This document shows positions 52,078 through 58,129 of a stretch of 64,000 nt of DNA, one piece after another. Both the position numbers and the translations under genes were made by a program. Under the pieces are notes generated by a model. It was not told the origin of the DNA. It saw only the letters and a program-made list of their open reading frames with translations, and did no database searches. The stretch's first letter is position 1. Every line of letters begins with the position of its first letter. Origin of the DNA: Dehalococcoidia bacterium (GTDB lineage: Bacteria > Chloroflexota > Dehalococcoidia > UBA2979); NCBI GenBank assembly GCA_965262725.1, contig OZ253555.1:2912001-2976000 (forward strand), given 5' to 3'.

Positions 52078-52152
52078 TCCGCGGGTGACCGGGGGCGCCG
52101 GTCCCGGCCCTCCGCCACCGCCGTTGTCGACGCCCGCGGCAGCGAAGTAAGG

Positions 52153-52189
52153 TGAATCTCTCACCCGCCCGGGAGATTTGAGAGTTTCA
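52153..52189. promoter_or_regulatory. Inverted repeat overlapping the HTH gene start
   Basis: TGAATCTCTCA (52153-63) / TGAGAGTTTCA (52179-89), 10/11 match; TAAGGT -10-like at 52148-53. Confidence 0.45.
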
Positions 52190-53307
52190 TGGTCGAGCGA
52201 CGGCGCGGTCCCGGCTCGCAATCGACGGATCCTCCGGGGCCGGGCGCGGCGTCCGGCCAGGACGCGGGTCGCGACCGGGAGGAGCGCCTCCCCGCGACGC
52301 GCTGGGTGAACGTCGCGCGCGCCTGCGAGGTGCTCGGCGTCAACGAGTCGACGGTGCGCCGCTGGGCCGACGCCGGACAGATCCGCTGCTTCCGCACGCC
52401 GGGCGGCCACCGCCGCTTCTCGGAACGCGAGCTCCTCGACCTCGTGGAGGGAGGGAGCAGCGGCCGACGCCGCGATCTCAAGGAAGCCGCGGTCAGCCGT
52501 ATCCGCCGCGAGCTCTCCTCCGGGCACCGCGACGCCGGCTGGTACGAGGAGATGGCGACGGACGAGCGCGAGACGCTCCGGCCGCTCGGCCGCCGGCTCG
52601 TCGAACTCGTCGACGACGACATCGCCCGCCGCGCCCCGCACGCGGAGATCGAGCGCGAGGTCGACGCCATCGGCGAGCGCTACGGCCAGGTGCTCTTCGA
52701 GCGCGGGATGCCGCTCTCGCAGGCGATCGAGGCCTTCACCTTCTTCCGCCGCTCACTCGACGAAGCGGCGAAGCGACTCGCCGAGCGGCAGCGCATGGGC
52801 GCCTTCGAGGCCGCCCGCGCCCGCGAGCAGATCGCCCAGCTCGCCGACCGCGTGCTGCGCGGGGTCAGCGCCGCCTACGACGACGCAAGGGTCGCCCCCT
52901 CCCGTCGACCGCGGGGAGGCGCGGCGGATGAGCCCGCCGGCGCGGCGCGCGAGCCGGTCTCCTCCCACGCGATCTTCCTGGAGCTTCGCGGCCGGCGCGT
53001 GCTGCTCGTGGGAGGAGGCCGCGCCGCCGCCGAGCACGTGGGGACGCTGTGGGACGCCGGCGCCGACGTGACCATCCTCGCGCCCGAGATCGATGAGACG
53101 CTGGGGAGCCACGTGCGGGAGGGGCGCGCCCGGTGGACACCACGGGCGTTCGCGCCGGGCGACAGGGCGGGCTTCGACGTGGTGATGGTCGTCGACGACG
53201 GTGCGGTTGATGCAGGTGTGGCGGTCGAGGTGCGATCCCTCGGCATCTGGGTGAACGCGGGCGGCGTCGCAGCCGACGACCCGGCCGCCGTTCGGGAGGA
53301 ACGCTGA
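52189..53307 (+). CDS. BldC/MerR-like HTH regulator fused to truncated CysG (precorrin-2 dehydrogenase) NAD-binding domain
   Basis: LGV.ESTVRRWADAG.I..FRTPGGHRRF; helical middle domain (YG...G..L..A..AF.FFR); IFLELRGRRVLLVGGG...GIWVNA..DDP then stop. Confidence 0.8.
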   Translation: MVERRRGPGSQSTDPPGPGAASGQDAGRDREERLPATRWVNVARACEVLGVNESTVRRWADAGQIRCFRTPGGHRRFSERELLDLVEGGSSGRRRDLKEAAVSRIRRELSSGHRDAGWYEEMATDERETLRPLGRRLVELVDDDIARRAPHAEIEREVDAIGERYGQVLFERGMPLSQAIEAFTFFRRSLDEAAKRLAERQRMGAFEAARAREQIAQLADRVLRGVSAAYDDARVAPSRRPRGGAADEPAGAAREPVSSHAIFLELRGRRVLLVGGGRAAAEHVGTLWDAGADVTILAPEIDETLGSHVREGRARWTPRAFAPGDRAGFDVVMVVDDGAVDAGVAVEVRSLGIWVNAGGVAADDPAAVREER

Positions 53308-53309
53308 GC

Positions 53310-54284
53310 ATGGCCCGAAGGGCGTCGGCCGGGAGGCCCGCCCCGGCATTCCCCGGTCCGCCGGCGAGGCGCGAACCGCTGCGCATCGCCTCCCCCAGAT
53401 CGCGCCTCGCCCGGGCGCGGGCAGAGGTCGGCGCCGCGGCGCTGGCCCGGGCGTCCGATCCGGTGTCCGCCACGATCGTCACCATCGAGACCGGGTGCAA
53501 CCGCGACCGCACCGCGCCCCTCGCCGCGGACGGGGACTGCGGCCTCCACGTGCAGGCGGTGCGGCAGGCCCTGCTCGACGGACGCGCCGACCTCGCCGTG
53601 CACTCGATTACAGAGGCCGCCGAACCCGCCGCCCCGATCGCGCTCGGCGCCGTCCTGCCGCGCGGCGACCCCCGCGACGCGCTCGTCGCCTCCGGGGGCC
53701 GGCGCCTCGCCGAACTCCCGGCGGGCGCCCGCGTCGGGACCGGCTCGCGTCGAGGCGCCTCGCTGCTGCGGGCGCTCCGGCCCGACCTCGTGACCGTCGA
53801 CGCGCCGGGCGATGTCGACACCAGGCTCCGCCTCGTCGCGGAGGGACGCTACGACGCGATGCTGCTCGCGCTCGCCGGGCTCGTGCTCGTCGGCCGGGCG
53901 GGGGAGGCGACGCAGATCTTCGACGCGAGCGAGTTCGTGCCGGCTCCGGGGCAGGGCGCGATCGCGATCGAGTGCCGCGCCGACGATCTGCGCGTGCTTG
54001 AGCTGCTCGCCCCCCTCGACCACCCGGCGACCAGGGCCGCCGTGGCGGCGGAGCAGGGCGTGGTGGAAGCGCTGGGGGGCGGCGGCGTCCTCCCTGTCGG
54101 CGCGCTCGCCACCGTGGAGGGCGAGCTCGTCTCGCTGCGGGCGATGCTCGCCGACACCGAGGGCGCACCTCCGCTCGTCGGCGACGCCGCCGGCCACGCG
54201 GCGGAGGCCGCTCAGATCGGGCGGGGCCTCGGCCGGCAACTGCGTGAGGCCGTCGACATGCGCGGCTCGGCGGCCAAGCGGTGA
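53310..54284 (+). CDS. HemC (hydroxymethylbilane synthase)-like protein, predicted catalytically inactive
   Basis: DLAVHS, DPRDAL, VGTGS, DTRL, PAPGQGAIAIECR retained; catalytic Asp, cofactor Cys and most active-site Arg/Lys replaced. Confidence 0.85.
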   Translation: MARRASAGRPAPAFPGPPARREPLRIASPRSRLARARAEVGAAALARASDPVSATIVTIETGCNRDRTAPLAADGDCGLHVQAVRQALLDGRADLAVHSITEAAEPAAPIALGAVLPRGDPRDALVASGGRRLAELPAGARVGTGSRRGASLLRALRPDLVTVDAPGDVDTRLRLVAEGRYDAMLLALAGLVLVGRAGEATQIFDASEFVPAPGQGAIAIECRADDLRVLELLAPLDHPATRAAVAAEQGVVEALGGGGVLPVGALATVEGELVSLRAMLADTEGAPPLVGDAAGHAAEAAQIGRGLGRQLREAVDMRGSAAKR

Positions 54285-54479
54285 ACGGCGAGGGAGAGGC
54301 TACCGCGGCCTCCGCCAACTGCGGGCGCATCTCTCCGGTCCGAGCGGAGTCCGCGGCAGCCCCGGATCCTCGAGATGGGGGGACCTCCGAACGGACCGGG
54401 GCGGGGCTGGTCGCCGCGCTCGGGTCCTCCCTACACTCTGCGGGGCCGTGATCAGCGGCCGCGCGAAGGAGGCAAGACG

Positions 54480-55271
54480 GTGGCCGCGCAGGCGGTGAGC
54501 GAGCTCACCCCCCTCGGCGACGGCGCACCGATCCGCGCCGTCGTCTTCGACGCCTACGGCACGATCTTCCGCTTCTCGGACACGGAGCACCGCCTGCTGG
54601 TCGCCTCGCTCCTGGCGGAGCAGGGCCTGGAAGCGGATCTCGACGCCTTCGTCGAGAGCCTGACGAAGTCCTTCCACCGCGTCGGCCCCTGGGCGGAGCA
54701 CACGCGCAAGGACGGCTCGGCCGACCGCGACCAGATGGTTGCGGGCCCCCTCCCCCCGTGGATCTCAACGTGGGAGATCTGGCGGCGCCAGTACGAGCAC
54801 GCATTCCGGGAGCACGGCCTCGCAGGGAACGCCGCGGCCGCCGCCGATCGGCAGCGCCTCCTCCTCACCGAGGCCGACCCGTACGCGGACGCGCACGCCG
54901 CAATCGAGGACCTCGCGGCGCGGGGGCTGCTGGTGGGTCTTCTCTCCAACGCGGACGATGACTTCCTGCAGAGCGCGATCACGCGCGCGAGGCTCCGGTT
55001 CTCGGTGATCGCGTCGTCCGAGTCGCTCGGCGCCTACAAACCCCACCGGGCGGTCTTCGACGCGCTCTGCGAGCGCCTCCGCTGCGCCCCCGCCGAGGTG
55101 CTCTACGTCGGCGACTCGCCGCATGCCGACGTCCACGGCGCGAAGCATGCAGGGCTTCGCGCGGCGTGGGTGCGGCGCGCCACGGTTTCCGAGTACCCGG
55201 AGGGCATCCCGCGGGCCGACGTCGAGCTCGGCTCGCTGCGCGAACTGTCGGACCTTGGGGGCCTCGCGTAG
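54480..55271 (+). CDS. HAD family hydrolase (2-haloacid dehalogenase-like)
   Basis: FDAYGT, LSNAD, YKPH..VF, VGDS..DV.GA. Confidence 0.9.
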   Translation: MAAQAVSELTPLGDGAPIRAVVFDAYGTIFRFSDTEHRLLVASLLAEQGLEADLDAFVESLTKSFHRVGPWAEHTRKDGSADRDQMVAGPLPPWISTWEIWRRQYEHAFREHGLAGNAAAAADRQRLLLTEADPYADAHAAIEDLAARGLLVGLLSNADDDFLQSAITRARLRFSVIASSESLGAYKPHRAVFDALCERLRCAPAEVLYVGDSPHADVHGAKHAGLRAAWVRRATVSEYPEGIPRADVELGSLRELSDLGGLA

Positions 55272-55423
55272 GCACGCGGCGGCGCGGCCAGACACGCTGC
55301 CGGGGCGATTCGGGGAGGCGAGGCGAGGCGTGCGTGTCGTTGCGACGCACTTGTGCCTGCCCCTATACTCAGGGATGCTCGCGAAAGCGCGCATGCGCAT
55401 GAGCGAATAGACCGAGGCGCACG

Positions 55424-57015: not shown

Positions 57016-57267
57016 ATGAGTCATCGCACGCAGATCACGCTGACCGATGAGCAATATGCGCGGCTACGCGAGGAGTCCCGGCGCTCCGGCCTCGGCCTCG
57101 CGGAACTCGTTCGGCGGGCGCTTGAGCGCAACTACGGGACGTCTTCCAGTGCGGAGGTGCTGAGCGCCCTCGACGCGAGCTTCGACTCCTGGGCGGACCG
57201 CGACTTTGACGGCGCGAGCTACGTCGAGGGGCTTCGTCGCGGCATGTCTCGCCGACGGGCGGGCTGA
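57016..57267 (+). CDS. vapB: VapB-like ribbon-helix-helix antitoxin
   Basis: RTQITLTDEQY...LAELVRRAL; coupled to PIN gene. Confidence 0.82.
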   Translation: MSHRTQITLTDEQYARLREESRRSGLGLAELVRRALERNYGTSSSAEVLSALDASFDSWADRDFDGASYVEGLRRGMSRRRAG

Positions 57268-57647
57268 TGGCGATCATCGTCGACACGTCGGTGCTGATCG
57301 ACCACCTGCGAGGTGAGGAAGCGGCTCGCGCAGCGCTTCGCGGCGCCACGGCCGCCGGCGAACGGCTCGCGGCTTCCGTACTCACCAAAGTCGAGGTGCT
57401 GGCCGGGATGCGAGTCCCGGAGGAGCGCGCCACGCGTCGCCTGTTGGACAGCCTCGACTGGATCGAAGTCGATGACGAGCTCGCCGAACGCGCCGGCGTG
57501 CTGGCCAACCGGTTTCTGCCGTCGCACCCCGGGGTCGATCCGGTCGACTACGTGATTGCCGCGACCGCCGAACTCCTCGACGCCCGGCTCTGGACCCGCA
57601 ACGTCCGCCACTTCCCGATGTTCCCGCAGCTCGAATCTCCGTACTGA
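57267..57647 (+). CDS. vapC: VapC PIN-domain toxin
   Basis: VDTSVLID, E, DYVIAATA, TRNVRHFP. Confidence 0.92.
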   Translation: MAIIVDTSVLIDHLRGEEAARAALRGATAAGERLAASVLTKVEVLAGMRVPEERATRRLLDSLDWIEVDDELAERAGVLANRFLPSHPGVDPVDYVIAATAELLDARLWTRNVRHFPMFPQLESPY

Positions 57648-57709
57648 GACGTTGTTCGGCGATCCCCCGAGTCTGCCCGTTGAGGCGTGCTCGTGTGGAC
57701 CGAGGAGGT

Positions 57710-58129
57710 TCAAGAGGCGCAGATCTTCGAAACGGGGGAAGAAGCACAGCTCACCTCCGATCCCGCGTGCTCCGGGCGCTTCTCCGCTCCCTGGTAGCCG
57801 GCATCGCCCCACACCTCCGTCTCGCCGCCGTGTAACAGGCGATGCGCCTCGGTCACGTCGGAGACGTTCGCCGCCGTCGTGCTCACGCTGTGGACCAGCC
57901 CCGTCCGCGCATCCGTGCCGGTGTGCAGCTTCATCCCGAAGGACCACTGCCGGCCCTTCCTGGTCTGATGCATCTCGGGCTCGCGCTCATGCTCCTGATT
58001 CTTCGTCGATGACGGCGCGCTGATGGTCATGGAGTCCACGATCGTCCCCTCGCGCACCAGCAGACCGCGCGCTGCGAGGTGCGTGTTGATCGTGGCAAAC
58101 AGCGCCGTTCCCAACTGGTGACGCTCCAC
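57710..58129 (-). pseudogene. IS5 family transposase internal fragment
   Basis: REPEMHQTRKGRQWSFGMKLH, DAGYQG; both ends missing; related to but distinct from the 25627 copy. Confidence 0.88.

Follow-up and report, generated by a model that had tools for sequence, protein, structure and literature searches.

HemC (TIGR00212; structures 1PDA and 1AH5) is a three-domain enzyme of tetrapyrrole synthesis, in whose E. coli form we take Cys242 to be the residue bearing the dipyrromethane cofactor, Asp84 to be catalytic, and R11, F62, K83, R131, R132, R149 and R155 to bind substrate or cofactor. SirC, the N-terminal part of CysG and Met8p act as precorrin-2 dehydrogenase and sirohydrochlorin ferrochelatase, while BldC of Streptomyces (6AMA, 6AMK) consists of chains of 71–72 amino acids with a single helix-turn-helix (HTH) domain. 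Metabolic enzymes have also given rise to pseudoenzymes, in which the catalytic residues are lost and the fold is kept under purifying selection; no description of a pseudoenzyme derived from HemC was found in the literature searched. The locus reported here lies in a 64,000-nucleotide stretch of contig OZ253555.1 (assembly GCA_965262725.1, positions 2,912,001 to 2,976,000), called the window throughout, and comprises two open reading frames (ORFs): ORF A (52189..53307, + strand, 372 amino acids), an HTH-helical regulator fused to a SirC Rossmann domain, and ORF B (53310..54284, + strand, 324 amino acids), a dead HemC with a full-length fold. Both start with ATG and, as a first-pass annotation made from the sequence had stated, are intact and stand 2 bp apart. 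We consider it fairly probable that the pair is what remains of a siroheme operon after loss of the pathway, and that B has been retained by selection as a non-catalytic pseudoenzyme.

ORF B has the three-domain fold and the length of HemC, with 36% identity to the E. coli enzyme over the 289 columns aligned by Foldseek and a TM-score of 0.80–0.86; comparison with 1ah5, 5h6o and 1pda gave TM-scores of 0.80–0.91 and root-mean-square deviations (rmsd) of 1.9–2.6. Pfam placed Porphobil_deam at residues 24–229 (9.8e-50) and Porphobil_deamC at 244–312, and the AlphaFold2 model had a pLDDT of 86.9 and a pTM of 0.84, with canonical HemC sequences included in its input alignment. The hinge and core motifs DPRDAL and PAPGQGAIAIECR are common to B and HemC, and DLAVHS and DTRL are retained as well, so that every motif the first reading had listed is present. 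The substitutions listed beside them were all reproduced in an HMMER alignment to the E. coli chain 1ah5: ATRQS reads ASPRS (R11>P), GGKGLFVK reads GDCGLHVQ (K59>C, F62>H), HSMKD reads HSITE (K83>T, D84>E), SSLRR reads GSRRG (R131 retained, R132>G), LRGN reads APGD (R149>P), LKRLG reads LVLVG, AER reads AEQ, and GGC reads GGG (C242>G). At R11, F62, K83, R131, R132, R149 and R155, B thus has P, H, T, R, G, P and R, with Glu at position 84. As the cofactor Cys and R11, F62, K83, R132 and R149 are lost, B cannot be a hydroxymethylbilane synthase, and the catalytic disablement proposed for it stands; by its sequence it is a descendant of the HemC family and not a working member.

Relatives were drawn from a panel of 40 related genomes together with the window's own (G000; 41 in total), of which G000–G004 belong to one genus. 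G000 is a single contig of 3.67 Mb with a completeness of 91.55%; completeness in the genus as a whole ranges from 73 to 93% (G001 85%, G002 73%, G004 87%). From the names on close database relatives of A and B, the host lineage is probably a high-GC member of the Dehalococcoidia/Chloroflexi. HemC-like matches occurred in 37 of the 41 genomes, and 30 sequences were extracted; the canonical active-site residues are complete in 27 of these, including that of G004, and degenerate only in G000, G003 and G001, in each differently. Among the best 120 of 5379 database matches, clustered at 90% identity, loss of the cofactor Cys and of R11, F62, K83, R132 and R149 is common to six clusters (P0121, P0122, P0123, P0127, P0128 and P0133), all intact at 304–325 amino acids, with P0121 95% identical to B. 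These six and B form one clade (D1; ultrafast bootstrap 100), sister to canonical HemC of the G004 type, and the five residues and the Cys are replaced in all seven members. The cofactor position is Gly in B and G, D, E, D, A and A in the other six, against Cys in 27 of 27 canonical relatives. Root-to-tip distances are 0.49–0.87 in D1 and 0.19–0.21 in its sister, so that D1 has evolved 2.4–4.4 times faster.

The HTH of ORF A (residues 39–88; 52303..52452, + strand) is matched by Pfam HTH_17 (8e-12) and also by MerR. It is of the same type as BldC, with 38–40% identity over about 52 residues and a Foldseek TM-score of 0.86 (Z 7.8 and rmsd 1.3 in a fold search), although it scores below the cutoff of HTH_BldC (NCBIfam NF033787; 52 bits against 77); by sequence the closest HTH in the PDB was that of 8jbs (CtMerR, 2.7e-11), and BldC 6amk was matched at 1.1e-8. 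Unlike single-domain BldC, A continues into an all-helical domain of 145 residues (residues 91–235; 52459..52893, + strand; AlphaFold2 helices at 94–235, pLDDT mostly >88), which is 62–70% identical across the class and for which no Pfam family was matched at E<=10. Its fold matches were helical bundles and globin-like sensor domains (Z 8.9–10.8), weak and non-specific, and the automatic Atlas cluster name, 'RsbRD N-terminal domain', was not adopted, Z-scores of 9.2 for pXO2-61 and 8.9 for a stressosome sensor being too low to be specific for helical bundles. A hypervariable linker follows (residues 236–255; 52894..52953, + strand; pLDDT <50 at 239–261), and then a SirC/CysG-type Rossmann domain (residues 256–357; 52954..53259, + strand) that carries NAD_binding_7 at 262–357 (3.2e-17), scores below the cysG_Nterm cutoff of NCBIfam (46 bits against 62), and matches SirC 3dfz and CysG in fold at Z 13.4 and 12.7. 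The AlphaFold2 model of A is confident for all three domains.

Comparison with G004 accounts for this architecture. Residues 1–243 of A align to a separate 260-residue HTH protein there (70% identity), and residues 253–363 align to residues 4–115 of a 253-residue SirC (54% identity), of which the central and C-terminal parts are missing in A; the region that reads 'WVNAADD..NCDF' in canonical proteins is degenerate in the tail, and everything 3' of it is deleted. Sirohm_synth_M, the C-terminal domains and NAADD..NCDF, all absent from A, are present in the SirC of G004, G008 and G021 (and of G016 by alignment alone). The domain composition first proposed for A, with the dimerisation part of CysG missing, is therefore confirmed by Pfam and by alignment to SirC, and the catalytic parts are gone too. 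Canonical SirC proteins of this family (L033 10536-11297 (-), L039 5873-6670, L040 5281-6228 and L045 8489-9223 (-)) also share a conserved C-terminal extension rich in Cys, C..C......CC..CP, a possible metal or Fe-S site.

The G004 locus, as read from Pfam scans, contains dinB, the HTH gene, sirC (NAD_binding_7 + Sirohm_synth_M), hemA, hemC, cobA-hemD, hemB, a HAD-family hydrolase gene, hemL and dnaN, in this order. The G003 locus contains dinB, the fused A, the dead HemC, HAD and dnaN, and the order in the window is identical; hemA, cobA-hemD, hemB and hemL are missing from the locus in the window's clade. Three deletions describe the difference: (a) the 3' half of sirC with hemA, (b) cobA-hemD with hemB, and (c) hemL, the HAD gene standing between hemB and hemL in G004. 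Since the two halves of A align to two G004 genes that overlap by 4 bp, the fusion is explained as read-through of the HTH gene into SirC, and the linker sits at the former junction of the HTH stop and the sirC start. The first deletion ended at the ribosome site of hemC, and the Shine-Dalgarno sequence GGGAGGAA of ORF B (53294..53301, + strand, read from the sequence) now lies within the last codons of A. The 'EER' over this site is retained in four of six fusion proteins (P0003 has GER and P0005 RED), and the remainder of the tail is variable. No hemA lies between A and B, as had been noted. The pair is, on this comparison of gene order, a remnant of a siroheme-branch tetrapyrrole operon, so that a system 'built' as a sensor, as the first-pass annotation had it, gives way to the residue of three deletions and a read-through fusion. 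Compared with pseudoenzymes in general, B stands out in that a sister genome still shows its ancestral state and the deletions that produced it.

The expectation that relatives would have the fusion and the same HemC substitutions held in part: the fusion recurs in G003, G001 and database clusters P0002–P0006, and the loss of residues is shared by the six D1 clusters, but the replacement residues are specific to each lineage. In one sublineage (G002, P0007/P0008) the SirC tail has been lost again and the dead HemC kept; in G002 it still stands 3' of the HTH gene.

The rest of the pathway is missing from the genome as well as from the locus. ORF B is the only hemC match in G000, and the check for a separate canonical hemC or cysG elsewhere in that genome found none; hemA was not found above cutoff in its 3.67 Mb, nor was any match to ALAD (hemB), HEM4 (hemD) or TP_methylase, and ALAD was likewise absent from G001–G003. 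With hemB not found, the substrate of a HemC could not be made in G000. Within the genus, hemB, a single TP_methylase (cobA), hemL above cutoff and NIR_SIR, the domain of siroheme-dependent sulfite/nitrite reductases, were found only in G004. Neither ferrochelatase nor ChdC was found in the five genus genomes, URO-D gave only weak partial matches (<=26.5 bits), and an AhbAB-type siroheme decarboxylase was not found in the five with a G008 protein as query, a search that had no positive control; among G000, G003, G004, G008 and G009, PF17805 (AsnC_trans_reg2) matched only in G008. Given its gene content and the failure to find late heme enzymes in the genus, the G004 operon looks like a siroheme operon, and the window's clade has, by this reading of the gene contents, lost it together with the client enzyme. 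COX1 and heme A synthase occur in all five genus genomes, with two full copies of subunit I in G000; a heme-copper oxidase and heme A synthase without the late heme enzymes suggest that these organisms probably depend on imported heme. The literature searched on heme auxotrophy in Dehalococcoidia contained nothing on this locus. As a separate observation, TP_methylase (PF00590) gave zero matches in G000–G003, although the control search was positive in 14 of 14 reference genomes, and only cobA in G004; the family includes the rRNA methyltransferase RsmI.

Several lines of evidence bear on whether B is still maintained. It lacks the marks of an ordinary pseudogene: there is no frameshift or stop in G000, G003, G001 or the six clusters, codon-position structure is present, and omega (dN/dS) is far from 1, at 0.18–0.28 in the GY94-F3x4 fit (0.19–0.29 by maximum likelihood in Biopython), with omega=1 rejected at a doubled log-likelihood difference (2dlnL) of 49–79. 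Indels among the seven copies are all in frame, and 128 of 324 positions are invariant, 104 of them matching the canonical consensus, while synonymous changes are found at 54 of 151 codons whose amino acid is invariant. GC content by codon position (0.84/0.59/0.92) is similar to that of neighbouring genes. Invariance is unevenly distributed, at 33% in domain 1, 52% in domain 2, 46% in domain 3 and 67% in the hinges (10 of 15 positions), and omega follows, being 0.33–0.52 in the former active-site segments (one pair with a 2dlnL of only 3.6) and 0.09–0.24 in the rest of B. For comparison, omega is 0.044 in the HTH and helical part of A, 0.18 in the SirC tail to residue 372 (2dlnL 36), 0.10–0.14 in HAD, 0.07 in dinB and 0.02–0.05 in dnaN. 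Contigs from read runs differ from the window at 13 sites without an indel, too few for pN/pS. We read B as a maintained protein under relaxed but real purifying selection. Constraint at the nucleotide level, from an antisense gene or an RNA, was rejected as the source of the conserved blocks, since these blocks contain synonymous changes (in block 208–227, at 7 of 17 conserved codons). Codons 188–207 (53871-53930) differ from the neighbouring blocks in that none of their 13 invariant codons has a synonymous change among G000, G003 and G001, a small sample.

A second clade of dead HemC, D2, was found in G016 and G041, where the HTH gene is followed, in a -1 frame overlap, by a 304-codon open frame encoding a HemC that has degenerated much further. 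It has lost the lid region by deletion and lacks HSxKD, SSxRR, RGNVDTR and the Cys. D2 has database relatives of 197–200 amino acids at 55–59% identity and branches among the canonical HemCs of the family, apart from D1; G016 carries a complete canonical operon elsewhere in its genome. The C-terminal 200 codons, compared between the two genomes, have an omega of 0.19 (2dlnL 30); with this value and the similarly shortened relatives, a plain pseudogene in G016 was rejected. As D2 is separate from D1 and both stand behind the same HTH gene, a dead HemC has been retained twice, with domains 2–3 best preserved each time. This count is subject to the way D2 came to notice, namely by being retained. 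In both D2 loci (L047, G016, 614-2094; L046, G041, reverse strand) a single start codon is conserved (GTG, about codon 105), and the 76 codons that separate it from the HTH stop also evolve as coding sequence, with an omega of 0.24 and per-position differences of 0.105/0.092/0.211. In G041 no ATG, GTG or TTG precedes these codons, and the frame is -1 to the HTH gene with an overlap of about 85 nt; frameshifting and a non-standard start are candidates for how the stretch may be translated.

The HTH-helical protein itself is widespread. It has about 210–260 amino acids, is 57–67% identical to A in most of the aligned stand-alone relatives outside the genus, and keeps 71 invariant residues besides the start Met. 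The gene was found in 33 of the 41 genomes, and in 21 of the 31 that have both genes it lies <=7 kb upstream of hemC on the same strand, across eight families of the class. This gene order makes it probable that the protein regulates the tetrapyrrole operon.

The reading we favour, that of a siroheme operon remnant with B retained as a non-catalytic pseudoenzyme, runs as follows. Three deletions stripped the pathway genes, and the HTH gene now reads through into the surviving Rossmann domain of SirC; hemC survived, as did the ribosome site and start codon that belong to it, but it lost the cofactor Cys and the binding residues. B is nevertheless maintained as a folded protein under purifying selection (omega about 0.2–0.3), and conservation is highest in the hinges and in domains 2 and 3. 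B would then act non-catalytically and without use of the old active-site cleft, most likely by binding a protein through the conserved surfaces of domains 2–3. The most plausible partner, by a guess from gene order, would be the operon's own HTH-helical regulator, with B as a cofactor-free 'apo-HemC' stand-in. A predicted complex of A 36–235 with B 20–318 scored 0.00 with its controls not folded, and is no evidence either way. The reading draws on the fact that hemC is still there although the pathway genes to either side of it were all deleted, and on the sublineage that has no SirC tail and still has its dead HemC.

A number of observations weigh against it. Omega in B is 2–6 times that of the neighbouring genes, dN/dS by NG86 is 0.58–0.82 at a GC content of about 0.9 at third codon positions (GC3), and raw divergence by codon position is nearly flat (0.21/0.23/0.29), all of which points to weak constraint and to dS near saturation; because of GC3, the NG86/LWL85 values (0.5–0.8) were judged to be biased upward. 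A near-identical strain (runs X15/X16) differs in B by 3 amino-acid and 2 synonymous changes, and in G002 the dead HemC is divided between the ends of two contigs and may be frameshifted. The database proteins are gene-caller output, so broken copies are under-sampled, and since G001, G002 and G004 are incomplete, gene absences there mean 'not found'. No new conserved site was found in D1, whose 24 clade-specific invariant residues form no obvious pattern, and the sequencing runs that contain this stretch (20 rows, 8 studies) include no RNA run. In the same family, at least three other genera have lost hemC without trace; as two of these (G010, G013) still carry the HTH gene, the regulator does not need a HemC.

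These points feed the foremost alternative, which we regard as rather unlikely: B and the Rossmann tail would be decaying slowly without function and simply not yet deleted, with omega held below 1 by selection against misfolding or against polar effects on HAD. The relaxed constraint, the fast evolution of D1 and the complete loss of hemC in other genera fit this explanation. So do former active-site residues that drift even between 95%-identical copies (P29 vs H, Q249 vs R), and a SirC tail that has an omega as low as that of B and was nevertheless deleted in one sublineage. High GC content, moreover, makes stop codons rare and lets long frames stay open by chance, antisense ORFs of 300–450 amino acids being listed. 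However, where DNA at this locus is free of constraint, the same divergence has left it rich in indels and beyond alignment: the DNA between B and HAD cannot be aligned between G000 and G003, and the linker of A (residues 233–255) is 35% identical between them, with a divergence of 0.435 at each of the three codon positions, whereas B aligns from end to end in seven copies. The deletions removed five and a half neighbouring genes, but hemC kept both its start and its ribosome site; six of the seven copies have the start context M-x-R/G-R, and a second lineage has independently retained a dead HemC. The earlier preference for retention over random decay is borne out by the likelihood estimates of omega, the in-frame indels and the long identical blocks with synonymous variation.

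A more far-reaching version of the regulatory idea, which we put forward as unlikely, is that HemC is a hidden partner of the BldC-like HTH-helical regulator throughout the class and reads the state of the pathway as apo or cofactor-loaded protein. The partner role would then have been kept twice, after loss of the pathway in D1 and after replacement by a foreign operon in D2, giving an accessory subunit of a transcription factor.

The proposal that came with the first-pass annotation was a ligand-sensing pair, in which a tetrapyrrole or metal would bind to B, with its periplasmic-binding-protein-like fold, or NAD(H) to the Rossmann domain from SirC, or both, in either case controlling the HTH. 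The link of the HTH gene to tetrapyrrole operons, the probable import of heme and the high conservation of the HemC hinges, which are needed for domain closure, are in its favour, as is the retention of the Rossmann G-x-G and of the 'LAPE' stretch after strand 2 in most fusions. In CarH/LitR MerR regulators (8JBS; CarH 5C8D), which bind the tetrapyrrole AdoCbl (adenosylcobalamin), an HTH, a helical bundle and a Rossmann-like domain follow one another as they do in A, with a whole-length Foldseek probability of 0.92–0.96; 8JBS is described in PMC11796333 as AdoCbl-bound CtMerR. The rmsd exceeds 20 Å, the sequence likeness is confined to the HTH, no B12-binding Pfam domain was matched in A, and its Rossmann part came from SirC through a recent gene fusion, so the modelled resemblance to CarH-type B12 regulators appears superficial. 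The NADH-sensing repressor Rex offers no closer parallel, as no Rex family of Pfam or NCBIfam was matched in A at E<=0.1, and the loss of the Rossmann tail in G002 and P0007/P0008, where the dead HemC is kept, argues against NAD(H) sensing as an essential module.

The cleft of B also speaks against this role. The variable parts of the protein, namely the lid loop (61–82), HSxKD, SSxRR, RGNVDTR and the Cys loop, all line the old cleft, with residues specific to each lineage, and the carboxylate-binding Arg residues are lost. The new Cys/His arrangement that had been seen in the lid region does exist, but its spacing is C-x13-C-x2-H and not x12, and it is confined to the window and P0121, being absent from the other five clade members. 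With cleft residues that differ by lineage and a Cys/His motif so restricted, sensing of a tetrapyrrole or metal through the old cleft is not supported; it seems unlikely that the cleft holds a new, conserved ligand site, and a role through the conserved domain 2–3 surfaces would fit better. The sensor-system reading of the pair as a whole is thus unsupported by the sequence comparisons and is, in our estimation, improbable, a verdict that is less firm for NAD(H). Most improbable of all is an enzyme of altered chemistry or substrate, for instance one using an imported pyrrole without a covalent cofactor, since the full-length fold, the confident model and the retention of R131, Q198 and the hinge motifs in all seven copies are set against the lack of any cleft residue set conserved among them, an acid catalyst position 84 that is Glu, Gly or Asp by lineage, and the failure to find a hemB or hemD that would supply substrate or take product.

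Of the surrounding features, the HAD-family hydrolase gene (54375..55271, + strand) is the other survivor of the old operon, its orthologues in G003 and G004 carrying Pfam Hydrolase/HAD_2; no terminator-like site was found in a search between A, B and the HAD gene. Upstream of A (52147..52188, + strand) stand a conserved -10-like box, GTAAGGT, and the HTH gene's short 5' leader, which closes with a ribosome site of the GGAG type. This layout, a TAnnnT box, an inverted pair (TCTC..GAGA or CTCGC..GCGAG) and GGAG, stands upstream of the HTH gene in eight of eight relatives' loci compared by eye, and the leader is the sole alignable island within the dinB-A spacer between G000 and G003; a generic sigma-70 scan did not call the box. 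The inverted pair shows compensating change between genomes (window; L033–L035, L037, L038, L041, L044), TCTC..GAGA in some and CTCGC..GCGAG in others, and could be an RNA stem or an operator. Further downstream, in the HAD-dnaN spacer, G000 and G003 share a single conserved island, and within it a promoter-like TTGCGA-18-TATACT (55340-55369) stands upstream of dnaN. The ORF list, read by eye, shows at 57016-58129 a small ORF and a 126-residue ORF beginning MAIIVDTSVLIDHL, which together look like a VapBC-type antitoxin/PIN toxin pair, followed by a minus-strand transposase-like ORF.

For annotation, the consequence is that a dead HemC which passes the curated hemC cutoff (218.7 bits against 164) will be called hydroxymethylbilane synthase by pipelines, and the tetrapyrrole capacity of these genomes will be overestimated. 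For the biology of the family, the locus documents the conversion of an enzyme into a pseudoenzyme while a sister genome still holds the starting state, so that the order of residue loss can be read directly, as can the deletions and the read-through fusion. The two independent retentions beside the same regulator suggest that HemC may have a second, non-catalytic role, and they also point to a widespread and unstudied HTH regulator of tetrapyrrole operons in Dehalococcoidia.

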